A stretch of DNA of 64,000 nt from an uncultured Candidatus Saccharibacteria bacterium (GTDB taxonomy: Bacteria > Patescibacteriota > Minisyncoccia > Phycocordibacterales > UBA2100), in contig CAZUVH010000001.1 of the NCBI GenBank assembly GCA_964623775.1, forward strand, positions 284,784-348,783. Reading direction: 5' to 3'. A model generated the notes under the pieces. The model saw only the letters and a list, made by a program, of their open reading frames with translations. It was not told the origin of the DNA and searched no databases. The translations under genes were made by a program, and so were the position numbers. Of this stretch, positions 29,210 through 54,639 are shown piece by piece (within the stretch, counting starts at the first letter, position 1; every line of letters begins with the position of its first letter).

Positions 29210-29214
29210 TAATC

Positions 29215-32473: not shown

Positions 32474-32474
32474 C

Positions 32475-33632: not shown

Positions 33633-33647
33633 AGTGACATACGTAAT

Positions 33648-34112: not shown

Positions 34113-34140
34113 AACCTCGAAGCGTGTACTATTCTGCCAT

Positions 34141-35181
34141 ATGCAGATAGGTAAGCGGAAGATTGGTAAGGGGCAACCTGTTTTCGTTATTGCCGAGATA
34201 TCGGGCAACCACAATCAGGACATTAATCGCGCCTACGCGATTATTGATGCCGCTGCTGAAGCGGGTGCAGATGCCGTAAAACTTCAAACCTATACGCCGG
34301 ATACCATTACTATCGATTCAGACCAGGAGTATTTTGTAGTTAGGTACAAGAATCCAGATTGGAAGGGCAAAACGTTGTTTCAGTTGTATGGAGAAGCATA
34401 TACACCTTGGGATTGGCAGCCTAAATTAAAGGAATACGCTGAAAAAAAGGGCCTCATTTGTTTCTCATCGCCATTTGATACCACATCCGTTGATTTTTTG
34501 GAGAAAATGCACGTTCCGGCGTATAAAGTCGCCTCTCCCGAGGTTGTTGATGTGCCACTTCTCGAGAGAATAGGTAAGACAAAAAAACCCGTCATTATGT
34601 CGCGCGGGATGGCGAAGCCCGACGAATTACGTTTTGCTATCAAGACCCTAAAAGGGAGCGGTACTAAAGAGGTGGCGATTCTACACTGCGTGAGCGCATA
34701 TCCCGCAATACCTGAGGAGATGAATCTTGCGACCATTCCAGATATCTCAAAACGTTTTAATGTGGTCGCGGGCCTTTCTGATCATACGCTCGGGATCGAG
34801 GTGCCTGTGGCCGCCGTTGCATTAGGGGCATTGATAATCGAGAAACATCTTACGATGAAACGATTTGATGGAGGTCCTGATGCATCCTTCTCTCTTGAGC
34901 CATCCGAATTCAAAGCGATGGTTTCGGCGATTCGAATTACTGAAAAGTCTGTCGGTAAGCCGATGTATACGTTGCTCGCAGAAGAGAATATCCTCGGTAG
35001 AAAATCTTTATTTATTGTGAAAGATGTAAAAAAGGGAGATTTGTTTACTCCGGAGAACGTTAGATCGATTCGCCCCGGCCATGGACTTGCGCCAAAGTAT
35101 TACAAAAAAGTAATAGGTAAGCGTGCAAAGATGGATGCAAAGAGGGGCACACCACTTTCTCGGGGCCACGTGAGCATATAA
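34141..35181 (+). CDS. pseI: NeuB-family nonulosonic acid synthase (pseudaminic acid synthase candidate) with C-terminal SAF domain
   Basis: The sequence is PVFVIAEISGNHNQDINRAYAIIDAAAEAGADAVKLQTY…GLSDHTLGIEVPVAAVALGA. The C-terminal SAF domain is LFIVKDVKKGDLFTPENVRSIRPG. The assignment as pseI, as opposed to neuB or legI, rests on the co-located pseB/pseC. Confidence 0.8.
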   Translation: MQIGKRKIGKGQPVFVIAEISGNHNQDINRAYAIIDAAAEAGADAVKLQTYTPDTITIDSDQEYFVVRYKNPDWKGKTLFQLYGEAYTPWDWQPKLKEYAEKKGLICFSSPFDTTSVDFLEKMHVPAYKVASPEVVDVPLLERIGKTKKPVIMSRGMAKPDELRFAIKTLKGSGTKEVAILHCVSAYPAIPEEMNLATIPDISKRFNVVAGLSDHTLGIEVPVAAVALGALIIEKHLTMKRFDGGPDASFSLEPSEFKAMVSAIRITEKSVGKPMYTLLAEENILGRKSLFIVKDVKKGDLFTPENVRSIRPGHGLAPKYYKKVIGKRAKMDAKRGTPLSRGHVSI

Positions 35182-41379: not shown

Positions 41380-42183
41380 ATGGCAAAATCTGACTCAAAA
41401 GGGAGCATCAGCTGGGTAGCGGTATCCGGCGGTTTTGATCCGATCCATATCGGACATGTACGAATGTTAGAGGAGGCCAAAAAATTGGCGGATAAGCTCG
41501 TAGTCATAGTCAATAACGACAATTGGCTTCGCGACAAGAAAGGATACGTGTTCATGCCTCAAAAGGAGCGAGCCGAACTCATCAAATCGTTTCCGTTTGT
41601 AGATAAAGTGGTCGTAACCGATCACAAGAAAAACGATCCGGACAGGAGTGTGGTTCGCGCTCTCGCAAAAATAAAACCAGCGATATTTGCGAACGGGGGA
41701 GATCGAAAAGGTGTACAAGACATTCCTGAAGCACTCCTATGTAAAAAAATGGGCATCAAAATGGTTTTCAATGTCGGATATGGAGGCAAGGTGCAGTCGT
41801 CTTCTTGGATGATTAAAGACGTGAGTCGTAATTTCCTACGGAGCGTTCGTCCATGGGGAGAATTTTATAGCTGGGACAAAGGTGAGCAGTGGAATCTAAA
41901 AACGATCTACATACAGGCCGGCAAGCGACTCTCTCTCCAGTATCACAATCACCGCTCGGAGCTCTGGACACTCGTGCAGGGGGACGCGACTGCCACGATC
42001 GAAGCAAATGGTGAGCTCAAACGCATTCCGCTTATGGTCGGGCAGACCTTTGTCGTACCGAGTCGTGCCCATCATCGTCTCGAATCAAAAAAAGGCGGCA
42101 TACTTGTGGAAGTCGCGCTCGGAAATTTTGATGAAAACGATATTGTGCGCCTCCACGACGATCATGGTCGCACTGGAGCGTGA
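41380..42183 (+). CDS. fusion protein: HIGH-motif cytidylyl/adenylyl-transferase-like domain + type-II phosphomannose-isomerase (ManC C-terminal) cupin domain
   Basis: The N-terminal ~150 aa are WVAVSGGFDPIHIGHVRMLEEAKKLADKLVVIVNNDNWL (HldE-II/TagD-like). The C-terminal ~110 aa are RPWGEFYSWDKGEQWNLKTIYIQAGKRLSLQYHNHRSELWTLVQG…HRLES…VEVALGNFDENDIVRLHDDHGR (ManC PMI cupin signature). Confidence 0.7.
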   Translation: MAKSDSKGSISWVAVSGGFDPIHIGHVRMLEEAKKLADKLVVIVNNDNWLRDKKGYVFMPQKERAELIKSFPFVDKVVVTDHKKNDPDRSVVRALAKIKPAIFANGGDRKGVQDIPEALLCKKMGIKMVFNVGYGGKVQSSSWMIKDVSRNFLRSVRPWGEFYSWDKGEQWNLKTIYIQAGKRLSLQYHNHRSELWTLVQGDATATIEANGELKRIPLMVGQTFVVPSRAHHRLESKKGGILVEVALGNFDENDIVRLHDDHGRTGA

Positions 42184-42274
42184 ACACCGTTTTGCCCCTT
42201 GATTTACGTTACGTTTGTGCCCTATTGACCCCGCGCATTTTTTGAACCAAGATGCACGTGTCAGGCCATATTTC

Positions 42275-43084
42275 ATGAAAAAAAGCGCTAAAATACCAGC
42301 CATTAAGGACATACCCGTAGTCATTTTCTGCGGAGGTAAGGGGACGCGCCTCCGAGAGGAGACTGAGATCATTCCAAAACCAATGGTGCGCATCGGTGAT
42401 AAACCGATCCTGTGGCACATTATGAAGATTTACTACACACAGGGATTTCGCAATTTTATTCTCTTGCTTGGATATAAAGGTGAAAAGATCAAGGATTATT
42501 TTTCAAACTACATGCTCTATGCGAGCGACCTGACGCTTTCGCGCGACGCATGGGGCATGGAAACGAGCTATCATAAAAAGCCGGCCGAAGACTGGCGCAT
42601 TACTTTTGTAGAAACCGGACCCGACACCATGACGGGGGGTCGATTGAAAAGAATAGAGTCTTTCATTCGGGCACCTTTTTTTATGCTCACATATGGTGAT
42701 GGTGTCGCCAACGTCAATTTGAAGGAGCTTATTAAAACGCATTCCGAAAAAGAAGCTCTGGTCACGATCACGGGAGTACATCCACCAGCGCGATTTGGAG
42801 AATTGCATATCGATGACGGGCACGTGGTTGCTTTCAATGAAAAACCAAAAACGGACGCGCTCATCAACGGAGGTTTTTTTGCTGTGGACCGCAAAGTCTT
42901 CAAGCACATACCAAAAGGAGATGAAATCAATTTTGAGATGGATGTACTGCCAGGCATCGCAAAGGATTCAAGAATGGCCGCGCATCGTCATGAAGACTAT
43001 TGGCAATGTATGGATACGATTCGTGACATGGAAGTGCTCAATGAGAAGTGGGCAAGTGGGAAGGCGCCCTGGAAAATATGGTAA
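42275..43084 (+). CDS. rfbF: glucose-1-phosphate cytidylyltransferase
   Basis: It is collinear with Salmonella RfbF/DdhA (VVIFCGGKGTRLREETEIIPKPMVRIGDKPILWHIMKIY…TGPDTMTGGRLKR…TYGDGVANVN…INGGFF…WQCMDTIRD…GKAPWKIW). Confidence 0.9.
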   Translation: MKKSAKIPAIKDIPVVIFCGGKGTRLREETEIIPKPMVRIGDKPILWHIMKIYYTQGFRNFILLLGYKGEKIKDYFSNYMLYASDLTLSRDAWGMETSYHKKPAEDWRITFVETGPDTMTGGRLKRIESFIRAPFFMLTYGDGVANVNLKELIKTHSEKEALVTITGVHPPARFGELHIDDGHVVAFNEKPKTDALINGGFFAVDRKVFKHIPKGDEINFEMDVLPGIAKDSRMAAHRHEDYWQCMDTIRDMEVLNEKWASGKAPWKIW

Positions 43085-44043
43085 AAGATTTTTGGGCCGG
43101 TCGACGCGTGCTCGTGACCGGGGGCGCGGGATTCATCGGATACGCGCTCGCACGCAAACTCCTGGCATCGGGTGCCAAGGTCTCGATTCTTGATATACGA
43201 CCACTTCCTCCGTATGCGACCAAAGAAGAGAAAAAGAAATTCCACTTTGTACGCGGGAGCGTGACTTCGGAAAAGACGGTCGGCGCCATTCTAAAGAGCA
43301 AGAAGATACAGACCGTATTTCATTTGGCCGCGGAGGCGATCGTAGATCGAGCGCTCCACGACCCTGAAAACGCACTTGACTCAAATATTCGCGGGACATG
43401 GGTGCTTCTTGAGAGCGTCCGACAATCGAGGGGTGTGGAAGATATTGTTATCGCGTCCTCTGATCACGTGTACGGAACTGATGCAAAGCCCCCGTTCCAC
43501 GAGAGCTCTCCGCTCGGGGGGAGTAGTCCATACGATATATCAAAAAGTTGCACAGATTTGATCGCAAAGATGTATGCGAAGACGTTCGGGCTACCCATTG
43601 TGATTGCACGCTGCGGCAACGTTTTTGGGCCCGGGGACATGAATTGGACGAGGCTCATACCCGATGCACTGCGCTCACTCTCAAGTGGTAAGCCGCTACA
43701 ACTCCGCAGCAATGGGAAGTTTTCCCGCGACTATGTGTATATCGATGATGTTGTCGATGCGTATATCGCGCTTGCGCGAAATCTTCGGAAGAAGAATTTA
43801 CATGGCGAAGCATTCAACTTTGCCTTTGGAAAACCACTTTCGGTAAAAGCCGTCCTACGGCACATCAAAGAGGGCGCAGGACGATCGGTCCCTTTTACGA
43901 TTGCGAATACCGCACGGCACGAAATCAAGTCGTTGCATTTGGATTCCACAAAAGCAAAACGCATCCTTTCGTGGGCACCTTCCGTATCACGAGAAGAGGG
44001 CTTTAGACGGACTATTGCGTGGTATGCTGATTTCTTCAGTTAG
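43078..44043 (+). CDS. rfbG: CDP-glucose 4,6-dehydratase
   Basis: The N-terminus MVKDFWAGRRVLVTGGAGFIG is collinear with RfbG/DdhB. There is a 7-nt overlap with rfbF. Confidence 0.85.
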   Translation: MVKDFWAGRRVLVTGGAGFIGYALARKLLASGAKVSILDIRPLPPYATKEEKKKFHFVRGSVTSEKTVGAILKSKKIQTVFHLAAEAIVDRALHDPENALDSNIRGTWVLLESVRQSRGVEDIVIASSDHVYGTDAKPPFHESSPLGGSSPYDISKSCTDLIAKMYAKTFGLPIVIARCGNVFGPGDMNWTRLIPDALRSLSSGKPLQLRSNGKFSRDYVYIDDVVDAYIALARNLRKKNLHGEAFNFAFGKPLSVKAVLRHIKEGAGRSVPFTIANTARHEIKSLHLDSTKAKRILSWAPSVSREEGFRRTIAWYADFFS

Positions 44044-44046
44044 ACC

Positions 44047-44742
44047 ATGAGCAGAACGGAACTATCCATCGTCCTCCCCGCATACAACGAATCCGAGCAT
44101 CTTCTGAATGTCGTCAGCGAAATGGCGAGTGTGTTCAATGCGTCAGGGATCTCGTATGAAATTCGTGTCGTGGATAATGGCTCGACTGATTCCACCGAAG
44201 AAGTCATCAAGAAAATCGAAGCAGAAAACCCACACGTCTCCCATCTTCATTTGGAAAAGAATCGCCACTACGGCGGCGGGATCCTTGCGGGACTTGAGGG
44301 CGCAAAAGGTGAGGTGGTTGGGTGGGCGGATGCGGATGGGCAGGTAGACCCAAGGACTATTGTGCAGCTATACAAGGAGATGCGTGAAAAGGGGCTTGAA
44401 TTGGGAAAAGCCGTGCGCGTCGTGCGGCCCGAGGCGCTCGGTAGACGCATCCAGACGAAAGTCTACAACATACTTTTTCGAATTTTTTTCCTCACTTCGT
44501 ATACCGATATGAATGCAAAGCCAAAATTACTTACTCGCAGAGCTGTAGACATCTTGCAGTTACAATCGCACGATTTCTTTCTCGATCCCGAATTCGTGAT
44601 AAAAGCTCTCAGGAATCATGTGCCGATATGCGAGGTTCCCACTGTATGGCGAGAGCGTCAGAGCGGGCGGACCCGTATCCACGTATTGGCCGCACTTCAA
44701 TTTTTGAAATCAATGGTGGTGTATCGGCTCGGATTGAAGTAA
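44047..44742 (+). CDS. glycosyltransferase family 2, polyprenol-phosphate sugar transferase type (DPM1/ArnC-like)
   Basis: The sequence is LSIVLPAYNESEHL…RVVDNGSTDST…GGGILAGLEGAKGEVVGWADADGQ. Confidence 0.8.
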   Translation: MSRTELSIVLPAYNESEHLLNVVSEMASVFNASGISYEIRVVDNGSTDSTEEVIKKIEAENPHVSHLHLEKNRHYGGGILAGLEGAKGEVVGWADADGQVDPRTIVQLYKEMREKGLELGKAVRVVRPEALGRRIQTKVYNILFRIFFLTSYTDMNAKPKLLTRRAVDILQLQSHDFFLDPEFVIKALRNHVPICEVPTVWRERQSGRTRIHVLAALQFLKSMVVYRLGLK

Positions 44743-44760
44743 TATAGTGATCCAATACAT

Positions 44761-46035
44761 ATGAAATATCCAGCGCACCACTTCGTAAAAACCGGACACA
44801 TCACGCATTGCCAGGTATGCAATGGCAAAAAGCTTCACACCATTTTGGATCTCGGTCACCAGCCACTGTGCGACACGCTTCTTACGGAAAAGACGCTCCA
44901 TGAGCCCGAAAAGACATATCCGCTCCGCATGATCTGGTGCGAGAGCTGCACCAACGTCCAGATTGATTACTGCGTCGACGGAAAAGAGGTCTACCACCCG
45001 AAGTATCCTTATAAAAGCGGTGTCACCAAAGAGCTCGTCGCATACCAAGTCAAAATAGCGGAAGGTCTCATCAAAAAATTCGGGTTGAAAAAAGGCGACC
45101 TCGTCGTTGATGTCGGATCCAATGACGGGACGCTTCTCAGTGGTTTCAGGGGCACGGGCGTCAAATTTCTCGGTGTTGAGCCTACTGATATCGCAAAAAT
45201 TGCACGAAAGAACGGTATTCCGACGGTGCAAGCCTTTTTCGACATTAAAACTGCGCGTGAAATAAAGAAAAAGCATGGGCCCGCGTCGGTTGTCGTGACG
45301 ACAAACACGTTTGCTCACATGCAGACACTCGGCGAATTTATCATGGGTGCCCACACGCTCCTTAAGAACGATGGCGTGTTCGTCGCCGAGACACATTATC
45401 TTCTCAACGTCATTGAAGGCGGACAGTTCGATACGATCTATCACGAACACTTGCGCACCTATTGCCTGCGCTCCCTCGTGAGGCTTTTTGATCAATACGA
45501 TTTCACCGTGATCGACGTCGAGCGGGGAGACAGATATGGCGGCAATATCCGCGTGTACGTGCAGAAGGGTAAGGGAAGAAAGGTCTCAAAGGCAGTCGAA
45601 GATTTGCTTGCTCTTGAGAAAAAGTCCGGTCTAGACAAGCTTTCCACCTACACCGTTTTCGCCGATCGCGTGAAAAAGGCGCGGCTGCATTTCATGGACT
45701 TTCTGATTCAGACAAAAGGGGCTGGGAAATCAATTGTAGGCAACTCATGTCCTGGCCGGTGCGCGACACTCCTTAATTATTACGGTGTCGACCGCGAAAT
45801 GATCCCGTATCTCGCGGAACAGCCTGCCTCGCTGAAGCTCGGGCACTATGCCCCCGGCACACACATACCAGTCGTTAATAATCAACGTCTTATCGACGAG
45901 CAACCTGATTACGTAGTGCTCATGGCATGGCACTATGCGCAGCCGATCATGGAACAATTGAAGGCACGCGGACTCCGGTCAGATTTTGTCATCCCACTGC
46001 CTGATTTTCGCATTGTGAAAAATTCGGAAGTATAG
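44761..46035 (+). CDS. NDP-hexose C-methyltransferase (TylCIII-like)
   Basis: The N-terminal zinc ribbon is CQVCNG…CESC. Motif I is LVVDVGSNDGTLL. The C-terminal C-methyltransferase domain is GKSIVGNSCPGRCATLLNYYGV…YVVLMAWHY. Confidence 0.8.
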   Translation: MKYPAHHFVKTGHITHCQVCNGKKLHTILDLGHQPLCDTLLTEKTLHEPEKTYPLRMIWCESCTNVQIDYCVDGKEVYHPKYPYKSGVTKELVAYQVKIAEGLIKKFGLKKGDLVVDVGSNDGTLLSGFRGTGVKFLGVEPTDIAKIARKNGIPTVQAFFDIKTAREIKKKHGPASVVVTTNTFAHMQTLGEFIMGAHTLLKNDGVFVAETHYLLNVIEGGQFDTIYHEHLRTYCLRSLVRLFDQYDFTVIDVERGDRYGGNIRVYVQKGKGRKVSKAVEDLLALEKKSGLDKLSTYTVFADRVKKARLHFMDFLIQTKGAGKSIVGNSCPGRCATLLNYYGVDREMIPYLAEQPASLKLGHYAPGTHIPVVNNQRLIDEQPDYVVLMAWHYAQPIMEQLKARGLRSDFVIPLPDFRIVKNSEV

Positions 46036-46042
46036 TGTCAGT

Positions 46043-46966
46043 ATGGCGAGTATCCGTGTTGCCGTGCTCGGCGCGAGCGGTATCGGAAGATTCCATGTCA
46101 GGGAATTTTTGCGCGCAGGCACCGATGTTGTTTCTATTCTCGGGAGTTCCTCCGAGAGCGCGCAAAATACTGCTACTGCGATTGCGAAGGAATTTGGTAC
46201 GCACCCTCGCGCGTATTCAGATCTCGACACGCTTCTCGAAGAGGAGAAACTCGATGCGGTTTCGATTTGTACTCCGCCACGCCTACATTTTGAGCAGATT
46301 AAACAGTGTCTAAATGCGAAGCTGCATGTTCTTTGCGAGAAGCCCCTTGTGTACGATGGATCGTCCGATACGGGTCCGCAGATCGAAAAACTCTTTCGTC
46401 TCGCGCAGAATCAAGACCGTATTCTTTCCGTAAACACCCAATGGCCCTCGGTTCTCCCGGTGGTATCGCAGTTTGTTGATCTTTCGGATGTGAAAAGTTT
46501 TTCATTTTCATCGCAGCCTGGTGAAGCGGGCGTTGAAATGCTTTTCGATCATCTGCCCCATGCGAATAGCATGCTTGTAAAAATGATTCCAAGAGGTCGA
46601 GTTGCCGATATCTCTTTCGAGATGAAATCATCTAAGGCTATATCGGTTTCGTTCGACTACCATGCAGACGGTTCGGTGTGTCATGTGAGCTATTTATTCC
46701 AGTTCAAAAAAGAGAGACCACGTGATCTTGCGTTTGCTATCAACGACGTGACGTTTGAGCGAGAAATCAAGGGAGGGTATTCGCAGGCGCTCGTAGTAAA
46801 CGGGGAAGCAGTCGCGATAGAAGATCCGTTCAAAACGTCCATCAGTAAATTCGTGAGCGCGATACAAGGAGAAGGAGCGCCCCTCGTTAGCGAGAGGGAA
46901 ATTATTGAGAATGCACACCTACAAGATGCCCTTGTGGCTGCATTCATGACACAATTTGACCAATAG
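46043..46966 (+). CDS. Gfo/Idh/MocA family NAD(P)-dependent oxidoreductase
   Basis: The sequence is IRVAVLGASGIGRFHVREF…AVSICTPPRLHFEQIKQCLNAKLHVLCEKPL. Confidence 0.8.
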   Translation: MASIRVAVLGASGIGRFHVREFLRAGTDVVSILGSSSESAQNTATAIAKEFGTHPRAYSDLDTLLEEEKLDAVSICTPPRLHFEQIKQCLNAKLHVLCEKPLVYDGSSDTGPQIEKLFRLAQNQDRILSVNTQWPSVLPVVSQFVDLSDVKSFSFSSQPGEAGVEMLFDHLPHANSMLVKMIPRGRVADISFEMKSSKAISVSFDYHADGSVCHVSYLFQFKKERPRDLAFAINDVTFEREIKGGYSQALVVNGEAVAIEDPFKTSISKFVSAIQGEGAPLVSEREIIENAHLQDALVAAFMTQFDQ

Positions 46967-47005
46967 TGAATCGGCGATGATACTATTCGGACTTCACGCA
47001 TTTTT

Positions 47006-47863
47006 ATGACCATCACACCCGAGTTGGAAAAAATCCTTGCATGTCCGCACTGCCGTGCCCGCCTACAGACATCCGCAGCAAGTTATATATGCAACACGTG
47101 CGGCAAGGAATATCGAAAGGCGGCGAGTCAGGCCATTTTTGAGACAATAAAATCGAGCGAAAGTAAGGAAGCGGGCGATACACTTTTTTTTACGGTCAAA
47201 AATTTCTTCAAGGCACACGTACCTTGGATTTTTCGGATGGTGTACGAGATCGTGGCGATCGACGTGGGGCCGAAGGCACGCAAACTCGTAGAAAAACTTC
47301 CGGAGAATGCCGTCATTGTAAATGTGGGTTCCGGCGTGAGACATGTCCATCCTCGCGTCATTAATCTCGACCTCAATATGGAGCAAGGCGTCGATCTCGT
47401 CGCAAGTGCGTACCAACTCCCATTCCAAAATGAAAGTGTGGATCTCGTGATCTCTGAGTCCATGCTTGAGCACCTCGAACATCCGGAAATTGCTGTTCAG
47501 GAAATGCATCGCGTTTTAAAGAAAAGTGGCAGAGTGTATATCCTGACACCCTTTATGGTCGGATTTCATTCCTCCCCGAACGATTTTTATCGGTGGACAA
47601 TTCCGGGTATGAAGATCTTTTTGAAGGACTTTGAGGTCACTGAGACGGGGGTTGCCGTGGGGCCGACGTGTGCCCTTACATGGATGATGCGTGAGTGGCT
47701 CGCGATCCTTCTCTCATTTGGTATCAGACCCCTCTACCAAGTATGGTCGCTCTTATTTTTGATACTTTTACTGCCTCTAAACGTCCTCGACCTAGTCCTT
47801 TCTCGGTACAGTTTTAGCTCCCAGATCGCAATGTCCTACTTTTGGATCGCGAGGAAGAAGTAG
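47006..47863 (+). CDS. class I SAM-dependent methyltransferase with N-terminal Trm112-like zinc ribbon and C-terminal TM helices
   Basis: The N-terminus has CPHCRARL…CNTCG. The MTase core is VNVGSGVRH…VDLVISESMLEHLEHP…LKKSGRVYI. The C-terminus is hydrophobic (SLLFLILLLPLNVLDLVL). Confidence 0.75.
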   Translation: MTITPELEKILACPHCRARLQTSAASYICNTCGKEYRKAASQAIFETIKSSESKEAGDTLFFTVKNFFKAHVPWIFRMVYEIVAIDVGPKARKLVEKLPENAVIVNVGSGVRHVHPRVINLDLNMEQGVDLVASAYQLPFQNESVDLVISESMLEHLEHPEIAVQEMHRVLKKSGRVYILTPFMVGFHSSPNDFYRWTIPGMKIFLKDFEVTETGVAVGPTCALTWMMREWLAILLSFGIRPLYQVWSLLFLILLLPLNVLDLVLSRYSFSSQIAMSYFWIARKK

Positions 47864-47880
47864 GGGTATAATGCGACATC

Positions 47881-48732
47881 ATGAATTCGTGCACCATCTG
47901 TGGCTCACAAGACTTTGTACCGTTTAGTACGAAAAATGGCCACAGCATTATTCGCTGCACCGCTTGCGATCTCATATTCGTGTATCCAATACTCGCAGCT
48001 CCGCGAGAAATATATGACCGCAATTATTTCGATGGAGCGGCGAACGGATTTGGCTATACAAATTACGACGAGGACAAGGAGCCAATGCGGCCTGTTTTTT
48101 CAAAATATATTGAAATAATTGATGAGGAGCTTGCGGGGGAAAAGGGCAGGCTGCTTGATGTGGGTGCAGCGACAGGTTTTTTTGTAGCGATGGCTCAAGA
48201 AGCGGGGTATGAGGCGGAGGGGGTCGACATTTCCGAGCACGCTGCCGGAGTGGGCCGGGCAAAAGGCCGCAAAGTGCATGCGGGCACAATCGAGGACATA
48301 CATGGCGTGTACGACTGCATTACAATGCTTGATCTCATCGAGCACGTACCTGATCCGCGATCTGTCATAAAAAAAGCGGCTGCACTTTTGAGAAGCGGGG
48401 GAGTGCTTGTGATTAATGCACCAGACGCGGGAAGTCTGTTGGCCCGAATGCTCGGTAAGCGTTGGCACTTGATTTCCCCACCTGAGCATCTCCATTATTT
48501 CAATCGAAATAACATGCGAAGACTTCTTGAGGAAGAGGGTTTCGAGGTCGTCCGTATCACCACGATCGGAAAATGGTTCACGCTCAAGTACATTTTCAAG
48601 GTGCTTGGTCGGAGCACGCATATCGGGCTGTTTCAGAAAATGAGTGCACTTTTTTCCCATTGGACGCTTGCACGATTTTCGATACCTCTCAATTTGCGCG
48701 ACAATATGTTTGTGATAGCTAAACGATCATGA
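47881..48732 (+). CDS. class I SAM-dependent methyltransferase with N-terminal zinc ribbon
   Basis: The N-terminus has CTICGS…CTACD. Motif I is LLDVGAATGFF, followed by …CITMLDLIEHVPDP…LLRSGGVLVI. Confidence 0.75.
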   Translation: MNSCTICGSQDFVPFSTKNGHSIIRCTACDLIFVYPILAAPREIYDRNYFDGAANGFGYTNYDEDKEPMRPVFSKYIEIIDEELAGEKGRLLDVGAATGFFVAMAQEAGYEAEGVDISEHAAGVGRAKGRKVHAGTIEDIHGVYDCITMLDLIEHVPDPRSVIKKAAALLRSGGVLVINAPDAGSLLARMLGKRWHLISPPEHLHYFNRNNMRRLLEEEGFEVVRITTIGKWFTLKYIFKVLGRSTHIGLFQKMSALFSHWTLARFSIPLNLRDNMFVIAKRS

Positions 48733-50486
48733 TCCGAATCTTGCGAGACCGCATACTTCTCATCACTGTTTTTGTAACGGTGCTGCTTTCGCTTGTGCCC
48801 CTCGTCCAATATCCTTCGTCGGGGAGCAGTTTTGAAGGATTTGTGTATGGGCGCTACATGGACTATTACTACACATCAGTGGCGCGAGAAGTGTATGACG
48901 GGTATCCGCTTCTAGGGAACCCGTTTTTTTATGAGCATAGGGAGTCAATAGCGCCTGCAATGATCCTCCCTTTTCAGATATATGCACTGCCATTGTTTGC
49001 GGGCTTCTCGCTTGCCGCGACCTCCATTTTCAATTTCAGTCTCTGGAGCGTGATTTTCGTGGCCGCCCTCTATCTTATCTTGAGACGACTCACCATTCCT
49101 TCAATATGGGCCGCTGTTGGGAGCGTGTTTGTGTATCTCATCATGTATGGACAGCTTATCCGGGTGGTCTCCATGGAAATGGTGCACCCCGTGTTTCTGC
49201 TTTTCATACTACTTTTCTTTTATTGGTGGGATAAGCCCGGAAAGTATCGCGACACAATCCTCTCACTCGTCATCGCATTCAGTATTTATATATACCCCTA
49301 CTTGCTGCACGTAATTTTCTGGTTCCTAATTATCGTCTTCGGCCAGCTGCTCTATGTGCGTGACAGTGAACGGACCAGGCGTGCGCTCATGGTTGGATTA
49401 ATTACTACGGCGCTCTGCATACCATTCCTGGTGATCACCTGGATCCAGGTGAATAATCCGTATTACGTCGAGTCACTGCTCCGTATCGGCTTAGGGTACA
49501 CACATATACCCTCAGGAGAGGTTGTGCGCGGTGCTATGCGTATATTCCCGATGATCGCGCTTGCGCTCTTGAGCTGGGTGTGGATCTTTCGCAAGAAAAA
49601 TCTCTCAAGTGCCCCGCACCTTTTTCATCTCCTTATTCTTGGAATCGCGATATGGATATCATCCACTGAGAATGTGATCACGGGTCTCGATCTGGAGACG
49701 GCGTCGCATGTCGAGAGGTTCGTCATGCTCTGGTTTTCGATCATGTCGGTCGTTGCTTTGTATTTTCTGTATAGTGCGCGACGCGACATCGCATTCATGA
49801 GTAGTGGTAAAAAGATCACACTCGGACTTCTTGCGGCACTCGTTTTTCTACTTGCGATACCGTATGTAAAAAAAATTGATCCGGCCATACGAGACGCTGA
49901 TGCGAATCGCCTGAAAGCCCAGAAGGCCACGGCAGTGCTACCTGCCTTGCGGTGGCTTGATGCCAGCGCGAAAGGCGCTGTAGTCTGGACGAACCCAGAG
50001 ACCGACCTCAATGCTCATGTGTCGGTGCTCACGACGCAATATACTCTTTTCGGCACCGGTCATTTACATCTCATGCCCACGAGGGACGTTGAAGATCGGT
50101 ATCTCATCGCGCACTCGGCGGGGGAAGTTACACTCGAAAGTATTACAGCTGACGTGTGGGATCACAGTGGTGTAGGTGCCGCGATTGATACACCAAATAC
50201 ACTCAATCGCAGTGTAAAGTTGTGCCGACTTCTCCGACTTCACTATTTTGGTCGCGAGTGTGGCAATCTCACGAATGCGCGGATACTCTATGCAGAGAAT
50301 TATGCGGCCATGTATAACAGGTTTACGAATGAGATTCGGCCACATCTTGCAGAGCAACTTAAAAAATACCACGTCGACTATGTCATTCGAGATACACAAA
50401 CCGACAACGACTTTCATCCCGAGCGTATGGTAAAAATGGAGCTTGTGTATTCAGACGACCGTTTTGAAATCTACAAGACAATATAG
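48729..50486 (+). CDS. polytopic membrane protein with C-terminal soluble domain (candidate GT-C-fold glycosyltransferase)
   Basis: The 585-aa protein has ~10–12 TM segments. Its first extracytoplasmic loop carries the acidic/aromatic motif AREVYDGYPLLGNPFFYEH. The C-terminal ~200 aa are hydrophilic. It is a paralog of the next gene. Confidence 0.4.
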   Translation: MIRILRDRILLITVFVTVLLSLVPLVQYPSSGSSFEGFVYGRYMDYYYTSVAREVYDGYPLLGNPFFYEHRESIAPAMILPFQIYALPLFAGFSLAATSIFNFSLWSVIFVAALYLILRRLTIPSIWAAVGSVFVYLIMYGQLIRVVSMEMVHPVFLLFILLFFYWWDKPGKYRDTILSLVIAFSIYIYPYLLHVIFWFLIIVFGQLLYVRDSERTRRALMVGLITTALCIPFLVITWIQVNNPYYVESLLRIGLGYTHIPSGEVVRGAMRIFPMIALALLSWVWIFRKKNLSSAPHLFHLLILGIAIWISSTENVITGLDLETASHVERFVMLWFSIMSVVALYFLYSARRDIAFMSSGKKITLGLLAALVFLLAIPYVKKIDPAIRDADANRLKAQKATAVLPALRWLDASAKGAVVWTNPETDLNAHVSVLTTQYTLFGTGHLHLMPTRDVEDRYLIAHSAGEVTLESITADVWDHSGVGAAIDTPNTLNRSVKLCRLLRLHYFGRECGNLTNARILYAENYAAMYNRFTNEIRPHLAEQLKKYHVDYVIRDTQTDNDFHPERMVKMELVYSDDRFEIYKTI

Positions 50487-50490
50487 GCCT

Positions 50491-52251
50491 ATGAAGGAAT
50501 TTCTAAAAACGCACAGGATCGCGATGCTCCTCACGCTATTTGTCGGAACTGTCATAGGATTACCCTCGATTCTCGCTCCGCTTGCGATCGGAAGTGCCTA
50601 TCTAGGCATCCCGTTTCTCCCCCTCAGTGATGAATATTTTTACATGTCTCGCATTCGCGAAGTGCTCGACGGTCACCTGTGGACAAATGCGCCGTACGTC
50701 TACGAGTACAAAAGCCTTCTCTCGCCTACATTTCCGGTCAATGAGTGGCTCTATGCAATCCCCGCACTCGTGTTTGGCCTGATCCCCGTCGTAGTAGCGA
50801 GCAAGTTTGTTCTGCCCGCGCTTTTATTTGTATTTTCGTATTTTCTTTTCCTCAGCGTATTCAGACGGGACGATGAGACTACCAGGTGGAGCGCGATTGC
50901 CGGCTCTCTCGTTATTGTATTGGGAACAGAATTTGTTAATTACAGTTATGTTTTCGGCATCTTGGATGGAACGAAGTATCCGATTGAAAATGGATGGACA
51001 CGACTGGTTAACCCGGTAATGGGCGGCGTGCAATTGCTTGCCTTTTTGTTTCTCATTGCAGAAGTGTGGAACCGAGGATGGCGCTATGCGCATATTGCAG
51101 CGGGCATAGTGCTTGCGGGCATGGTCGGGTATTTCTTCAGTTTTGGTCTGGCCCTGTCCATGCTTGCGACACTTTTCCTTTTTGCGCTTGCGAGAAAAGA
51201 ATACAATGTCGCTCGTGCCCTTTTCACGACGGGGGCACTCTCCATTTTTCTCGACGCGTGGTGGTGGTACAAGATGCTCTTTTCGCTCGGTGGGGAAGAG
51301 GGGGCGGCACTGGCCATGCGCAACGGCATGTTTTTCACGCATGAGCCCGTTCTCAACAAAGCACTACTTGCATCCACTGTCGTTGTCGGCGCACTCTTTT
51401 GCTATGTGTACTTTTTCTTGCGCAGGCGCGAGTACATTCGAGAGTATCTCTTTGCTTTCGCCCTCGTCGTGGCTGGCTGGATTGCGTTTAATGAGCAGGT
51501 AATAACGGGGCGACAGGTCTGGCACCATCACTTTATGCAATACACAGTGCCAATGGGGGTTGCGGCAATAATAATAGCGGGATACTACACATTCAGGCAT
51601 CTGAGGTATCTATGGATCTTCGGTACCGGAAGTCTTGCGACCGTTTGCATCGCCTACGGTCTTTATGCCGTCACTGCATACACAGCACCATGGGATATAG
51701 ATCGTCATATCCATGTTCAACGTGCAGCACTTTATACGACATGGTTCCAGCAGAATGCACCCAAAGATTGTGTGGTCCTCGCGAACCCAAACGATATCGA
51801 TGTGTTCGATGAGGAGCGTCTCATCCCCACGTTCTCGCATTGCAATACGTATACCGTTGATTTCGTCCCATTCGGAATTACGCGAGAACGTATCGAGCAC
51901 AATTATTTATTACAACTGCGTATGCGTGGGGTAAGCGCAGCGGGCGTCCGTGAACATCTTTTGGGGCAAGGTGTATGGATTCGTCAGTATTTTTCTTCAG
52001 ATTGGCACCAGGTCTTTGGCTATGAGCGTGGCATGGAGCCGTGGATTCTTGATCGTATTGATCGACTTACGGAGGCATATCAGCATTTCATGAAAGTACC
52101 GCTCGAAACTCAGATCAAGAAATATCGTGTCGACTACATCCTTTCGGAAGGACCACTTCCGAGAAAATTGCTTGCCGAACTACCAGATCTCAAGCTCGTT
52201 GCTTCTCCCGGCATGTACCGCATCTATCAATTTACAGAGTCCGGAGAGTAG
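50491..52251 (+). CDS. polytopic membrane protein, paralog of 48729–50486 (candidate GT-C-fold glycosyltransferase)
   Basis: It shares the loop motif IREVLDGHLWTNAPYVYEY and a related C-terminal tail (KYRVDYILSEG…YRIYQF vs KYHVDYVIRDT…FEIYKT). The start is at MKEFLK. Confidence 0.4.
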   Translation: MKEFLKTHRIAMLLTLFVGTVIGLPSILAPLAIGSAYLGIPFLPLSDEYFYMSRIREVLDGHLWTNAPYVYEYKSLLSPTFPVNEWLYAIPALVFGLIPVVVASKFVLPALLFVFSYFLFLSVFRRDDETTRWSAIAGSLVIVLGTEFVNYSYVFGILDGTKYPIENGWTRLVNPVMGGVQLLAFLFLIAEVWNRGWRYAHIAAGIVLAGMVGYFFSFGLALSMLATLFLFALARKEYNVARALFTTGALSIFLDAWWWYKMLFSLGGEEGAALAMRNGMFFTHEPVLNKALLASTVVVGALFCYVYFFLRRREYIREYLFAFALVVAGWIAFNEQVITGRQVWHHHFMQYTVPMGVAAIIIAGYYTFRHLRYLWIFGTGSLATVCIAYGLYAVTAYTAPWDIDRHIHVQRAALYTTWFQQNAPKDCVVLANPNDIDVFDEERLIPTFSHCNTYTVDFVPFGITRERIEHNYLLQLRMRGVSAAGVREHLLGQGVWIRQYFSSDWHQVFGYERGMEPWILDRIDRLTEAYQHFMKVPLETQIKKYRVDYILSEGPLPRKLLAELPDLKLVASPGMYRIYQFTESGE

Positions 52252-52289
52252 TTGGACGCTTTCAGGGGGCGGGGTACAATGTCGCCCAT

Positions 52290-54500
52290 ATGCTCGAAAA
52301 AATTCTGCGTGGGATAGTCATTACCGGAGTTTTCAGTTTGCCGTTCGTTTGCCTCATTGTCGCGTCATCGATGTTCTTCCCTTTCATTACGGGTAAGAAT
52401 TTCGCGTTCCGCATCATTGTAGACATTATCGTCGGCGCGTGGCTTGCCCTTGCACTTGTCAACGAAAAATATCGTCCCCGTCGATCCTGGATCCTGGGGA
52501 CATTCGCTCTATTTGTACTCATAATGGCGATAGCAAATGCGCAGGGCGTCTATCCCTTCAAGAGCTTCTGGAGCAACTACGAACGCATGGACGGGTGGGT
52601 CACGATTGCCCACACACTGGCATACCTCGTCGTGGCCGCATCAGTGATCGCAAGTGAGAGAATGTGGCGATCCCTGTTTCAGGTCAATCTCGGCGTATCA
52701 GTGTTCTTGAGTGCGTATGGGTTAATGCAGTTGGCGGGGCTCTCTGCACTGGGTCAGGGGGGGAAAGCTGGACTTGCTACAGCTCGTATCGATGCGACTT
52801 TTGGAAACCCGATCTATTTGGCGGTGTACATGCTTTTCAATATCGCGTTCGCCGCACTCCTGTGGGTCCAGATGTCACAGGTACGGCCGGCAGGTAAGCG
52901 CTTGATGCCGTCGCTCTTTTACGGCGGAGTCATTTTATTCGATACATTGGCACTCCTTCTCACTGCGACACGCGGTGCGATGTTCGGGCTCATTGGAGGA
53001 GCGCTGCTCGCCTTGCTGCTCGTGGCCTTTTTCCAAGGGACTCGACGAATACGGACTATCGCAGTCGCATCTCTTGTGGCCGTCGTTGTCTTTGGCGTTG
53101 CCATCAAGCTCGGTAAAGATACGCCACTCGTAAAGAGCATAGGATTCATTGATCGTCTCGCGCAGACAAATCTGGGGGGTACCGTAGAGACCCGATTTCT
53201 CAATGCGGGTATGGCGTGGCAGGGAGTGAAAGAGCGTCCACTCCTTGGTTGGGGGCAGGAAAATTACGCCATTGTTTTCGATAAATATTTCGATCCTCGC
53301 ATGTACCGTGCGGAACCGTGGTTTGACCGAACGCACAACGTCATATTTGACTGGTTCGTTACGGGCGGCATCCTCGGACTTCTCTCGTATCTCTCAATTC
53401 TCGCAGCTGCACTGTGGCTGATTTGGATGCGGGGGATACTTTCGATTCCTGAACGAGCGATATTCACCGGGCTTCTCGCGGGCTATACATTTCAAAACCT
53501 CACGGTTTTTGACAATGTGACCAGTTATATACTTTTTGCGACTGTGCTCGCATACATTGTCTGGCGCGAGCGCGAGGCGGGGAAAAATGCGCCGCTCTTC
53601 ACGAAAAAGCTTCTGCCCGAAAATAGTCTGCCGTTTGTCGCTGTAATCGCAGGTATCGTCACGTTTGCTGCCGTATGGTGGATCAATATTCCCGCGTTGC
53701 AGGCCAATTGGACGCTTCTCAAGGCAGTAGCGCCGCAGCAGGCCGGTGTCACAAAGAATCTCGAATACTTCAAGCAGGCGATCGCATACGGCACGATGGG
53801 CACACAGGAGGCTCGTGAGCAGATCGCGCAGATCTCCGTGCAGGTGCAGGGCTCGAAGCTCGACAATTCGATCAAGCAGGAGTTCTTCAACCTGGCAACT
53901 TCCGAGATGAAAAAGCAAAGCGCAGAGTCGCCGCTTGATGCGCGATTCCCACTCTTCCTCGGGTCTGTCCTCGACGCGTATGGTCAGCATGACGCAGCTG
54001 CAGCCGCTTTCCAGCGGGCACATGAGCTCTCGCCGGCCAAACAAAGCATTCTGTACCTCATGGCGCAAAACGCGATGACGCGTGGTGACAGTGCAGCCGC
54101 ACTGCAACATTTGAAGACAGCGTATGAGGTCCTTCCGGCAAACATAGAAGCACGACTCAACTATGCCGCGATGGCGATCCAGCTGAAGCAGGACGCGCTC
54201 GCCGATGAGTTGCTTGCGCCAGTCATGGCGACAGGGGAGGCGGCCAACAATAAAGTCGCATCCGCGTATCTCGCACGTGGCCGCTACGACAAGATTGCGC
54301 AGATCTGGGAATCGCACATCGTGGCAGTACCGACCGATCTGCAAGGATACTTCACGCTCGCCGCCGCCTATTACGCACTCGGCAACAAGGAAAAATCGAT
54401 CGAAGCTTTACAAAAGGCAAAGGCCGCTATCCCAGCTTCGGCACAACAGGTTGATTCACTCATCATTGAGATTCAAAACGGCACGGTGAAGTTGCAGTAG
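52290..54500 (+). CDS. O-antigen ligase family (Wzy_C) membrane protein fused to C-terminal TPR repeats
   Basis: The N-terminal ~430 aa are multi-TM with Wzy_C-like loop regions (…TFGNPIYLAVYMLFNIAF…LLLTATRGAMFGL…). The C-terminal ~280 aa are helical repeats (…AAAAFQRAHELSPAKQSILYLMAQNAMTRGDSAAALQHLKTAYEVLPANIEARLNYAAM…). Confidence 0.7.
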   Translation: MLEKILRGIVITGVFSLPFVCLIVASSMFFPFITGKNFAFRIIVDIIVGAWLALALVNEKYRPRRSWILGTFALFVLIMAIANAQGVYPFKSFWSNYERMDGWVTIAHTLAYLVVAASVIASERMWRSLFQVNLGVSVFLSAYGLMQLAGLSALGQGGKAGLATARIDATFGNPIYLAVYMLFNIAFAALLWVQMSQVRPAGKRLMPSLFYGGVILFDTLALLLTATRGAMFGLIGGALLALLLVAFFQGTRRIRTIAVASLVAVVVFGVAIKLGKDTPLVKSIGFIDRLAQTNLGGTVETRFLNAGMAWQGVKERPLLGWGQENYAIVFDKYFDPRMYRAEPWFDRTHNVIFDWFVTGGILGLLSYLSILAAALWLIWMRGILSIPERAIFTGLLAGYTFQNLTVFDNVTSYILFATVLAYIVWREREAGKNAPLFTKKLLPENSLPFVAVIAGIVTFAAVWWINIPALQANWTLLKAVAPQQAGVTKNLEYFKQAIAYGTMGTQEAREQIAQISVQVQGSKLDNSIKQEFFNLATSEMKKQSAESPLDARFPLFLGSVLDAYGQHDAAAAAFQRAHELSPAKQSILYLMAQNAMTRGDSAAALQHLKTAYEVLPANIEARLNYAAMAIQLKQDALADELLAPVMATGEAANNKVASAYLARGRYDKIAQIWESHIVAVPTDLQGYFTLAAAYYALGNKEKSIEALQKAKAAIPASAQQVDSLIIEIQNGTVKLQ

Positions 54501-54639
54501 AGAATTTTTTCCCCGGACAATCTCGTCATTTGCACTTCTCTCGGTGCAGTTGAAATGATATTTTAAGAGATCAAAAAGAGATAAAGAAAAGATAAAGTGA
54601 TTGTTTGCACAGCGGCGGGCACGTATGTATAGTGCCGCC

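Follow-up and report, generated by a model that had tools for sequence, protein, structure and literature searches.

Tandem paralogous membrane proteins with a predicted GT-C fold in a Saccharibacteria glycan-assembly island: probable glycosyltransferases of an unannotated family

Introduction

In a 64,000-nucleotide stretch of DNA from an uncultured Candidatus Saccharibacteria bacterium (the whole stretch that was analysed, hereafter the window), two adjacent genes, here called A and B, encode large polytopic membrane proteins, and the question is what these proteins do. An earlier note described them as tandem, collinear paralogs of ~590 aa that could not be assigned to a known family, and proposed them as candidate novel GT-C glycosyltransferases. 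Fold, topology, GtrA fusions, and GT2 proximity support this proposal; we consider it likely that A and B are unannotated membrane glycosyltransferases with a GT-C_A-like fold, belonging to a family so far found only in Patescibacteria/CPR and acting in polyprenyl-phosphate-sugar transfer outside the cell.

Results

Two paralogs of an unannotated family

Full-length homologues were found for both A and B, with E-values down to 1e-195, so both are real genes; gene A has orthologues with 50% to 31% identity. In the mechanically generated ORF list, gene B starts at a TTG (position 50443), but the true start is almost certainly the ATG that gives the 586-aa product (Table 1), which lies 4 nt past the gene A stop; database protein P0008 is identical to the gene B product as read from this ATG. 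Residues 10-583 of A align end to end with residues 12-580 of B (23% identity, E 1e-14), including the C-terminal tails that the earlier note had called related. A and B are true paralogs and do not match by chance, and we regard them as anciently diverged members of the same unannotated family.

Searches of A and B against Pfam, NCBIfam, and PDB, using sequences and profiles, returned no match and no sequence-level tie to any known GT-C family, which bears out the earlier failure to assign them. PMT_2 matched just one of 38 members, below threshold, and hhalign against a neighbouring PMT_2 protein gave a probability of 0.5%. The family comprises about 2,700 clusters at 50% identity; all members carry the source name "hypothetical protein," and the named members and genome loci all come from Patescibacteria/CPR MAGs, bar a few MAGs labelled otherwise.

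Table 1. Features of the A/B locus, in window coordinates
Feature	Position	Strand	Details	Basis
Glucose-1-phosphate cytidylyltransferase (makes CDP-glucose)	42215..43084	+		TIGR02623, 313 bits vs 300.25 cut-off
NDP-glucose 4,6-dehydratase (CDP/dTDP type)	43048..44043	+		Pfam Epimerase/GDP_Man_Dehyd; TIGR02622 and TIGR01181 below cut-offs
Short GT2	44047..44742	+	231 aa	PF00535 at 6e-25
NDP-hexose C-methyltransferase	44761..46035	+	Methyltransf_13/14	Pfam, 3.9e-42 and 9e-20
GFO_IDH_MocA oxidoreductase	46043..46966	+	candidate sugar ketoreductase/dehydrogenase	Pfam, 6.5e-26
MT285, membrane-associated methyltransferase	47006..47863	+	Zn-ribbon + Methyltransf_11 + hydrophobic C-terminal tail	Pfam
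MT283, methyltransferase	47881..48732	+	Zn-ribbon + Methyltransf_23	Pfam, 9e-30
Gene A	48729..50486	+	585-aa GT-C-fold membrane protein, A-type paralog	ORF list, AF2, Foldseek
Gene A first extracytoplasmic loop motif	48861..48941	+	residues 45-71 (DYYYTSVAREVYDGYPLLGNPFFYEHR); Y48, E54, D57, G58, E69	alignment columns (nearly) invariant
Gene A extracytoplasmic C-terminal domain	49968..50483	+	about residues 414-585	AF2 model
Gene B	50491..52251	+	586-aa GT-C-fold membrane protein, B-type paralog	ORF list, AF2, Foldseek
Gene B first extracytoplasmic loop motif	50629..50712	+	residues 47-74 (DEYFYMSRIREVLDGHLWTNAPYVYEYK); Y51, E57, D60, G61, E72	conservation in 175 members, positive-inside count
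Gene B outer-face loop motif	51490..51543	+	residues 334-351 (NEQVITGRQVWHHHFMQY); T339, G340, H347	alignment; between TM9 and TM10 in model
Gene B extracytoplasmic C-terminal alpha/beta domain	51685..52248	+	residues 399-586; Cys pair C427/C451	AF2 model
Wzy_C membrane protein (O-antigen ligase/polymerase-like) + C-terminal TPR	52290..54500	+		Pfam Wzy_C 5.6e-18, above cut-off

Predicted fold and membrane topology

We used AF2 to build template-free models of A (pLDDT 87.7, pTM 0.89) and B (pLDDT 93, pTM 0.92) and compared them with PDB structures using Foldseek, inspecting the top 50 matches. Where 10-12 transmembrane helices and a soluble domain of ~200 aa had been expected, both models show 11 transmembrane helices and, C-terminal to them, a domain of mixed alpha/beta structure, and both contain a long first loop with two helices (47-59 and 83-95 in B), as in GT-C_A enzymes. 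For B (TMq 0.45-0.52), the top 18 matches are all solved GT-C structures, among them PglB (6gxc, 3.3e-6), STT3, AftA, AglB, and AftD, with ALG3 and PimE further down the list; for A, the top 24 are all solved GT-C structures, among them DPY19 (7zlg, 2.5e-6), AftA, STT3, PglB, AftB, EmbA/B, and AftD. TM-scores of A and B against GT-C structures (0.40-0.52) lie in the borderline range for "same fold," and rmsd values are large, the lowest-rmsd alignment for A being that with AftA (7.7 Å over 479 columns). For both models, GT-C enzymes are the only matches of meaningful probability; transporters are at noise level in both lists (E>0.08, probability 0.05-0.15, TM 0.1), and neither model has a Wzy, WaaL, or RodA/FtsW/SEDS structure among its top 50 matches. 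The GT-C fold proposed in the earlier note thus held up under structure prediction.

Across 38 sequences, K+R density is 0.24 in predicted cytoplasmic loops vs 0.058 in predicted outside loops, and by the positive-inside rule this skew puts both the motif of the first loop and the C-terminal domain on the outside, in agreement with the extracytoplasmic position first suggested for the motif. The same orientation is indicated by the Cys pair in the C-terminal domain of B, which co-varies (both residues in 143 of 175 members, neither in 31, mixed in one), and by two relatives with GtrA fused at the N-terminus, an arrangement that implies an N-in start. The fold and topology of both proteins are thus established computationally, as predicted models. 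Residues 541-584 of A gave a weak match to DUF7654 that is not significant (E 0.11).

Conserved residues on the outer face

The acidic first-loop motif reported earlier is present as AREVYDGYPLLGNPFFYEHR in A and IREVLDGHLWTNAPYVYEYK in B; in the AF2 model of A, it sits within EL1, after TM1 and before the second helix of that loop. Among 175 full-length relatives (B numbering), Y51 is conserved in 99% and G61 in 100%, position 57 is E/D in 98%, position 60 is D/E in 97%, and position 72 is E/D in 98%; in the loop between TM9 and TM10, G340 is conserved in 100% and H347 in 99%. The acids E57, D60, and E72 are candidate catalytic acids, and the loop at residues 334-351 is a candidate phosphate/donor-binding site. 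All of the conserved residues (Y51, E57, D60, G61, E72, P175, Y214, G279, G340, and H347) lie on the outer face. With the C-terminal domain not counted, every position conserved in at least 80% falls in an outside loop or a transmembrane segment, and the cytoplasmic loops contain none. A search of the family members for WWD[YWF]G found the motif in 0 of 175.

Gene neighbourhood and polyprenyl-phosphate sugar machinery

The window contains a large glycan-assembly island, including an MsbA/PglK-like ABC exporter. Homologues of the C-methyltransferase upstream of A recur in family loci L004, L008, L009, L018, L024, L026, and L035, the last of which is a GtrA-fusion locus that also contains the GFO_IDH_MocA family. 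The 3' end of the MT283 gene overlaps the gene A start by 4 nt, and in L006 and L015, MT283 orthologues (1.5e-140 and 1.5e-113) immediately precede A-type genes. Orthologues of MT285 (E 1e-38 to 1e-45), which keep the hydrophobic C-terminal tail, occur in 10 loci, where the point at which they end ranges from 4 nt within the B-type gene to 29 nt before its start. An unexpected feature is that the conserved methyltransferase partner upstream differs with the paralog type, being MT283 for A-type and MT285 for B-type genes. Downstream, the Wzy_C-TPR protein named in the earlier note was confirmed, and in L006, L007, L015, L017, and L031 a B-type gene is directly followed by a Wzy_C-TPR orthologue and then secA.

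GtrA is a putative polyprenyl-phosphate-sugar flippase, and two family members (P0061 and P0150) have an N-terminal GtrA_DPMS_TM domain fused to the family domain, with matches above cut-off (6e-16 and 1e-18). Pairs of GtrA and GT2 genes lie upstream in L001, and in a Falkowbacteria locus each of three paralogs abuts a short GT2. A DPM1/GtrB-like GT2 homologue occurs within 10 kb of the family gene in 22 of 28 related loci, although glycan clusters of all kinds commonly contain GT2 genes, whose proximity alone is weak evidence. The GT2 upstream of A, previously labelled a polyprenol-phosphate GT2, is present as a GT2, but matches to polyprenyl-phosphate models fall below cut-offs: its best NCBIfam matches are all polyprenyl-phosphate glycosyltransferases (PgfS, ArnC, AglJ, and PpgS), each below the curated value. 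It is a candidate polyprenyl-phosphate sugar synthase that may supply a lipid-linked donor. Neither a GtrA-like gene nor any other gene for a dedicated flippase was found in the window.

Discussion

Several other functions have to be weighed for proteins of this shape. With PglB, STT3, and AglB as the best Foldseek matches for B and also high for A, an extracytoplasmic C-terminal domain as in oligosaccharyltransferases, and a PglK-like exporter in the island, A and B could be enzymes of this type that transfer a preassembled oligosaccharide en bloc from polyprenyl diphosphate to proteins. We regard this as improbable: the defining WWDxG motif is absent from every member, there is no STT3 Pfam match and no PDB sequence or profile match to any oligosaccharyltransferase, and the family is tied to GtrA and DPM1/GtrB-like GT2 proteins, the machinery of monophosphate, single-sugar donors. 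Moreover, AftA and DPY19 score equally, so the similarity reflects the shared GT-C core.

That outer-face acidic, His, and Gly residues are strictly conserved in ~175 diverged members of both paralog types argues for an active site and not a scaffold, and transporter matches are no better than noise. It is therefore very unlikely that A and B are transporters, flippases, or non-catalytic scaffolds, even though GT-C-like non-enzymes exist (PIG-U of the GPI transamidase, 8imx_U, appears far down the Foldseek list of A) and the window lacks a recognizable flippase. Least probable, and barely credible in our judgement, is a role as Wzy/WaaL/SEDS-kind (GT-C_B) polymerases or ligases acting on polyprenyl-diphosphate repeat units together with the Wzy_C-TPR protein. 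That gene adjoins gene B, the adjacency is kept in five related loci, and A and B are polytopic proteins inside a glycan cluster; however, neither has a Pfam match to Wzy_C or any other polymerase, the long acidic loop that follows TM1 corresponds to GT-C_A architecture, and WaaL, RodA, and FtsW are missing from the top 50 Foldseek matches although PDB has such structures. The models appear to match GT-C_A structures better than WaaL or RodA.

Both models have PglB/STT3/AglB (CAZy GT66) near the top of their structural match lists (E 3e-6 to 5e-4, probability 1.0), and A and B share with these enzymes a polytopic core, a long acidic EL1, and an extracytoplasmic C-terminal domain; unlike them, A and B have 11 transmembrane helices rather than 13, a smaller and unrelated C-terminal domain, and a context that points to monophosphate-linked single-sugar donors. 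Mycobacterial AftA/AftB/AftD/Emb (GT85/GT89/GT53) and the C-mannosyltransferase DPY19 (GT98) have the GT-C_A core, Foldseek E-values comparable to those of the oligosaccharyltransferases, and polyprenyl-monophosphate sugar donors, as proposed for A and B. There is no sequence similarity to these enzymes; taxonomic range and C-terminal domains differ, and their acceptors (arabinogalactan/LAM or Trp in TSR repeats) are absent in CPR. The Streptococcus mutans Pgf system consists of a GT2, PgfS, and two polytopic glycosyltransferase-like membrane proteins, PgfM1 and PgfM2. The window resembles it in having one GT2 and two polytopic membrane proteins, a likeness of gene layout, and PgfS is the best NCBIfam match of the window GT2 (3e-18, far below the curated cut-off); unlike in that system, nothing here points to a protein as the acceptor of A and B.

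The general three-component model joins a synthase, a flippase, and a GT-C enzyme (PMC11127046, PMC7389260), as in GtrA/GtrB/Gtr* of Shigella and Salmonella, CsbB(GtlA)/GtcA/YfhO(GtlB) of Bacillus and Listeria, and GT136 of Citrobacter (PMC11127046, PMC7389260). The gene context of A and B, with a GT2 and a putative pathway from CDP-glucose to a C-methyl-deoxysugar, fits such a system. The likeness includes a candidate GT2 synthase gene and a GT-C-fold transferase gene in one gene string, a GtrA-type flippase fused in two family members and adjacent in another locus, and a catalytic loop and C-terminal domain predicted outside the cell. By contrast, the sequences of A and B do not resemble Gtr*, YfhO, or GT136 models, the window has no GtrA gene, two paralogous GT-C genes stand in tandem, the hosts are CPR, and each GT-C type is accompanied by a conserved SAM-methyltransferase partner of its own. 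To our knowledge, such a partner is not part of classical three-component systems.

Under this model, a nucleotide sugar would be made in the cytoplasm by enzymes encoded in this one co-directional run of genes, of which the glucose-1-phosphate cytidylyltransferase is established; 4,6-dehydration, C-methylation, and reduction would yield a branched 6-deoxyhexose. Family resemblance and synteny suggest that the short DPM1/GtrB-like GT2 would load this sugar onto polyprenyl phosphate, and conserved adjacency suggests that MT283 and MT285 may modify, from the cytoplasmic side, either the sugar or the intermediate in which it is lipid-linked. The lipid-linked sugar would then be flipped, a step for which relatives carry GtrA adjacent or fused. 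In the last step, A and B would each pass the sugar on to an acceptor outside the cell, using an outer-face pocket that is probably lined by the WTRLVNP, FTH, and VITG...H loops together with the acids of the first loop (E57/D60/E72 in B). Surface glycans or glycoproteins may serve as acceptors, and specificity or linkage would differ between A and B. Glycosyltransferase catalysis, donor, and acceptor are all what we infer for these proteins. A and B thus belong to a large unnamed family in ultra-small CPR bacteria that has the predicted fold of enzymes moving lipid-carried sugars to targets outside the cell.

Paralogous membrane proteins of an unannotated family

Genes A and B are confirmed in the ORF list at the positions that the earlier note had given. 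For gene B, the mechanical ORF list proposed a start at TTG 50443, an over-extension (50443-50490) that overlaps the end of gene A; homologues and the identical database protein point to the ATG at 50491. BLASTP aligned residues 10-583 of protein A with residues 12-580 of protein B (23% identity, E = 1e-14), an end-to-end alignment that bears out the collinear paralogy claimed in the earlier note; the two are genuine collinear paralogs, and their divergence is old. In a Falkowbacteria locus, orthologues of both types occur (A-type at 31% identity, E = 1e-94; B-type at 32% identity, E = 1e-91) together with a third paralog that is more distant.

Coordinates of the features discussed in the text (positions in the window unless a locus is named)
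Feature	Position	Length	Remark
Gene A	48729-50486	585 aa	in ORF list
Gene B	50491-52251	586 aa	starts with ATG 4 nt past the gene A stop; product identical to database protein P0008
MT283	47881-48732		methyltransferase; overlaps the start of gene A by 4 nt
MT285	47006-47863		methyltransferase
GT2	44047-44742	231 aa	in the same co-directional string as A and B
Co-directional string	41380-54500		tiny gaps between genes
Wzy_C-TPR	52290-54500		Wzy_C membrane domain fused to C-terminal TPR domain
Hydrolase-domain protein	54601-57471	956 aa	follows Wzy_C-TPR
Distant relative of hydrolase-domain protein	L013 3018-5798		Kaiserbacteria locus, near a family gene
GtrA fusion locus	L035 6001-8253		
Fused ABC exporter	9578-11380		
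Amidotransferase sets	11405-14300; 30419-33632		
Amidotransferases of the two sets	12046-13224; 32475-33632		37% mutual identity
Paralogous pair	14845-16272; 36599-38134		25% identity, E = 1e-11
Lyase/ligase-like gene pair	16293-18328		
Nonulosonic-acid pathway	20448-35181		pseudaminic/legionaminic-like
PseB-like dehydratase	20448-21437		
CMP-transferase	23841-24584		
DegT aminotransferase	29215-30378		
NeuB	34141-35181		

The earlier note had been unable to assign the proteins to a known family, and our searches agree: no model in Pfam-A or NCBIfam matched A or B, and neither sequence searches nor a family profile found a relevant match among PDB chains. A lone PDB match to a BTB/POZ protein (E = 0.0055) was confined to a hydrophobic stretch and was dismissed, and a DUF7654 match on the tail of A (E = 0.11) was non-significant. 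All homologues are named "hypothetical protein" in their source records. A word-indexed search identified 7 A-type and 46 B-type relatives, and an exhaustive search with a profile through 1.84 billion cluster representatives yielded 2,684 at E ≤ 1e-3 (2,037 at E ≤ 1e-10 and 1,039 at E ≤ 1e-30), which puts the family at ~2,700 clusters at 50% identity. Judged by Pfam, NCBIfam and the PDB, the proteins form a sequence family that is new and unannotated, within a kind of enzyme that is known.

In a scan of GTDB species representatives, we identified 27 loci, all of them in MAGs. These are labeled Kaiser-, Komeili-, Giovannoni-, Magasanik-, Peregrini- or Taylorbacteria or Parcubacteria/Patescibacteria, with a few "uncultured Saccharibacteria" and one "Gammaproteobacteria"; a cluster look-up of distant members added a single organism name, a Patescibacteria MAG. 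The 38-sequence alignment had no sufficiently conserved stretch, and the scan was therefore queried with 16 closer B-type sequences, which skews it toward B-type relatives; restriction of the family to the CPR is provisional because the scan relied on B-type motifs. Our literature search found no paper on GT-C enzymes in CPR/Patescibacteria.

Predicted fold and topology

Glycosyltransferases of the GT-C_A class have 7-14 transmembrane helices and a long first extracytoplasmic loop after the first helix; this loop contains short helices and a conserved acid that is the proposed catalytic base. AlphaFold2, run without templates, produced confident models of gene B (pLDDT 93.0, pTM 0.92) and gene A (pLDDT 87.7, pTM 0.89) that are alike in having 11 transmembrane helices, two short helices in a long loop after the first of these, and 170-190 residues of alpha/beta domain at the C-terminus, the layout of membrane part and soluble domain that the earlier note had described. 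The helix count is consistent with hydropathy and lies within the GT-C range. In B, the first extracytoplasmic loop (EL1) spans residues 37-96, with helices at 47-59 and 83-95.

We used Foldseek to compare both models with the PDB and found three-dimensional similarity to solved GT-C structures. For B, the best 18 matches are all GT-C glycosyltransferases (PglB 6gxc at 3.3e-6, 5ogl, yeast and human STT3, AftA 8if8, AglB and AftD), and ALG3 and PimE appear lower down the list. For A, the best 24 matches are all GT-C proteins (DPY19 7zlg at 2.5e-6, AftA, STT3, PglB, AftB, EmbA/B and AftD).

Single-sequence hydropathy segmentation was too noisy for assigning topology and was replaced by loops set by the model helices, with charges counted over the 38-sequence alignment. 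The density of K+R is 0.24 in predicted cytoplasmic loops versus 0.058 in predicted outside loops, which indicates an N-in, C-out arrangement, the first loop lying on the outer side together with the C-terminal domain; a cytoplasmic position of the first-loop motif, which the earlier note had regarded as incompatible with a GT-C enzyme, is therefore contradicted by the positive-inside rule. Two independent lines agree with this charge-based topology. A C-terminal cysteine pair (C427/C451 in B) is present as a pair in 143 members and absent as a pair from 31, with one cysteine alone in 1, a co-variation that would fit a disulfide in an extracytoplasmic domain. Published topology work places the end of the four-helix GtrA module in the cytoplasm, so the two natural fusions in which the family domain follows this module likewise agree with N-in, C-out.

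Conserved residues and alternative assignments

Conservation was assessed in an alignment of 175 full-length members (B numbering). The first-loop motif REVxDG...[NA]PxxYE[HY], reported in the earlier note, is real by this measure, and no other part of the family is as highly conserved. Acids occupy E57 (E/D 98%), D60 (D/E 97%) and E72 (E/D 98%); as in GT-C_A enzymes, EL1 is long and acidic, and it is predicted to lie outside. Near-invariant positions are Y51 (99%), G61 (100%), P175 (100%), Y214 (100%), G340 (100%) and H347 (99%), followed by G279 (97%), T339 (93%), R171 (90%) and H284 (89%); no position in the predicted cytoplasmic loops reaches 80% conservation. The A-type subset retains Y, E, D, G, E, P, Y, G, T/H, TG and H and carries Q/E at R171 and F/H/Y at N174; by this pattern both paralogs look catalytically competent, with differences in residues that may contact the substrate.

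Oligosaccharyltransferases (STT3/PglB/AglB, GT66) are prominent among the structural matches, and A and B could accordingly be proposed as members of that group; we disfavor this assignment, since the defining WWDxG motif is absent (WWD[YWF]G in 0 of 175 members), Pfam gave no STT3 match at E ≤ 1, and PDB sequence and profile searches gave no match to an oligosaccharyltransferase at E ≤ 10. Placement with the PMT/PMT_2/ArnT-like enzymes (GT39/GT83) fails at the sequence level, where a single one of 38 members matches PMT_2 (E = 9e-4, below the gathering threshold) and the family profile, compared by hhalign with a PMT_2 protein of the related locus L001, scored a probability of 0.5%.

Kinship with Wzy_C proteins, O-antigen ligases, polymerases or SEDS proteins (GT-C_B) is disfavored by the lack of a Wzy_C Pfam match in A or B and of any WaaL, RodA or Wzy-like structure among the best 50 Foldseek matches of either. 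A role as transporters or scaffold proteins is likewise disfavored, as both the conservation pattern and the fold search count against it: transporters appear in the Foldseek lists at E > 0.08 only, with a probability of ~0.1 and a TM of ~0.1. The earlier note had said that models closer to transporters or Wzy polymerases would speak against its GT-C reading; at meaningful Foldseek probability, the matches are GT-C proteins only.

Gene context in the window and in related genomes

The co-directional string begins with genes for a cytidylyltransferase-cupin protein, a glucose-1-phosphate cytidylyltransferase (TIGR02623, above cut-off), an NDP-glucose 4,6-dehydratase, the GT2 and an NDP-hexose C-methyltransferase, and continues with a GFO_IDH_MocA oxidoreductase, MT285, MT283, A, B and Wzy_C-TPR. 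The GT2 finds its best NCBIfam matches among polyprenyl-phosphate glycosyltransferases only (PgfS, ArnC, AglJ and PpgS), each below the curated cut-off. Directly downstream of the B-type gene, Wzy_C-TPR and then secA recur in five related loci (L006, L007, L015, L017 and L031), a conserved neighborhood that may reflect function or merely clade synteny. The protein encoded after Wzy_C-TPR in the window combines a hydrophobic segment at its N-terminus with an LCAT/PGAP1-like alpha/beta-hydrolase domain.

In 22 of 28 related loci, a homologue of the GT2 is no more than 10 kb away. Each of the three paralogs in the Falkowbacteria locus adjoins its own short GT2, and Parcubacteria Gr01-1014_8 (L001) has two GtrA+GT2 pairs and a PMT_2 gene upstream. 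The strongest functional link comes from the family members P0061 (735 aa) and P0150 (750 aa), in which a GtrA/DPMS transmembrane domain at the N-terminus (PF04138, E = 5.7e-16 and 1e-18, respectively, above cut-off) is fused to the family domain; genes for a nucleotidyltransferase, a dehydratase, a C-methyltransferase and a GFO_IDH_MocA enzyme are also present on the P0150 contig (L035), as in the window. Classical three-component systems have GtrA as the putative flippase for polyprenyl-phosphate sugars (PMC11127046, PMC7389260). Of the synthase, flippase and GT-C enzyme that make up such a system, the synthase has a candidate in the GT2; for the flippase, no GtrA-like ORF of at least 70 aa was found anywhere in the 64-kb window, whereas relatives have it fused (P0061, P0150) or adjacent (L001). 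Taken together, the GtrA fusions, the GtrA+GT2 neighbors and the frequency of nearby GT2 genes are indirect hints that A and B may use polyprenyl-phosphate-linked sugar donors and serve an extracytoplasmic acceptor.

Close to A and B, we found no flippase of the GtrA, Wzx or MATE type. An MsbA/HepA/PglK-like fused ABC exporter, whose NCBIfam matches are all below cut-offs, is encoded elsewhere in the window without a tie to the A/B module and is the only obvious candidate there for a lipid-linked-glycan exporter.

In the window and among the related loci L006-L020, each paralog type goes with a conserved methyltransferase of its own, MT285 accompanying B-type genes and MT283 accompanying A-type genes. 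MT285 orthologues begin with a Zn-ribbon or a hydrophobic N-terminus, contain a Methyltransf_11 domain and close with a hydrophobic tail that is itself conserved (...FSFGS..L.SL..N..MF.FFPIK.LD..F..WP.A...A.LYCVVRKK); their ends fall between 4 nt inside and 29 nt upstream of the B-type start in 10 loci, and they lie at most one gene away in two more. The gene immediately before the A-type gene is an MT283 orthologue in L006 (E = 1.5e-140) and L015 (E = 1.5e-113). Given this pattern, the window looks like an MT283-A cassette placed between MT285 and B.

Other sugar-biosynthesis genes in the window

Elsewhere in the window, two separate sets each combine a WbuX-type N-acetyl-sugar amidotransferase (TIGR03573, above cut-off) with a HisH/HisF-like glutamine amidotransferase/cyclase pair, which points to two acetamidino-sugar pathways in one island. 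The nonulosonic-acid region also encodes an ATP-grasp ligase, a class I/II aminotransferase and an HMGL-like enzyme, whose presence suggests an unusual N-acyl decoration. Two distant paralogs, one with a weak Capsule_synth (KpsS/KpsC-like) match and the other without a Pfam or NCBIfam match, may be transferases for the acidic sugars. A gene pair resembling subunits of ATP-citrate lyase/succinyl-CoA ligase (ATP-grasp_2 + Citrate_bind; CoA_binding + Ligase_CoA) is odd within a sugar island; its products may activate acyl groups for sugar decoration.

Proposed function and significance

On the best-supported reading, genes A and B probably encode GT-C-fold glycosyltransferases, which would take a sugar off a polyprenyl-phosphate carrier and pass it to an extracytoplasmic acceptor. 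The catalytic base would come from among the candidate acids of the first loop, and phosphate would be bound by conserved His, Arg and Tyr side chains. Based on gene content only, a CDP-glucose-derived, C-methyl-branched and possibly O-methylated 6-deoxyhexose is a plausible donor sugar. A more speculative and rather unlikely extension is that the proteins represent a CPR-specific, CAZy-unclassified GT-C family whose members each form a conserved cassette of two genes with a SAM methyltransferase that is membrane-associated (MT285 with B-type, MT283 with A-type), the sugar being methylated on, or during loading onto, the polyprenyl-phosphate carrier before its transfer outside, as in a "four-component" variant of the Gtr-type system.

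Much of bacterial diversity belongs to the CPR/Patescibacteria, most of which cannot be grown alone, and which rely on cell-surface contacts with a host; to our knowledge, almost nothing has been reported about their envelope glycans. Undescribed GT-C families are to be expected in poorly studied phyla, and the present one is hence no conceptual surprise. A fold and a probable mechanism can now be assigned to a family of wholly hypothetical proteins, which yields a candidate new CAZy GT family, candidate catalytic residues (D60, E72, H347 and others) and a marker for CPR surface-glycan loci. The conserved methyltransferase and GT-C cassette and the GtrA fusions provide concrete hypotheses on how the donor is made and handled; if true, the four-component pathway would coat bacteria that are ultra-small and probably episymbiotic with deoxysugars bearing methyl groups and C-branches.
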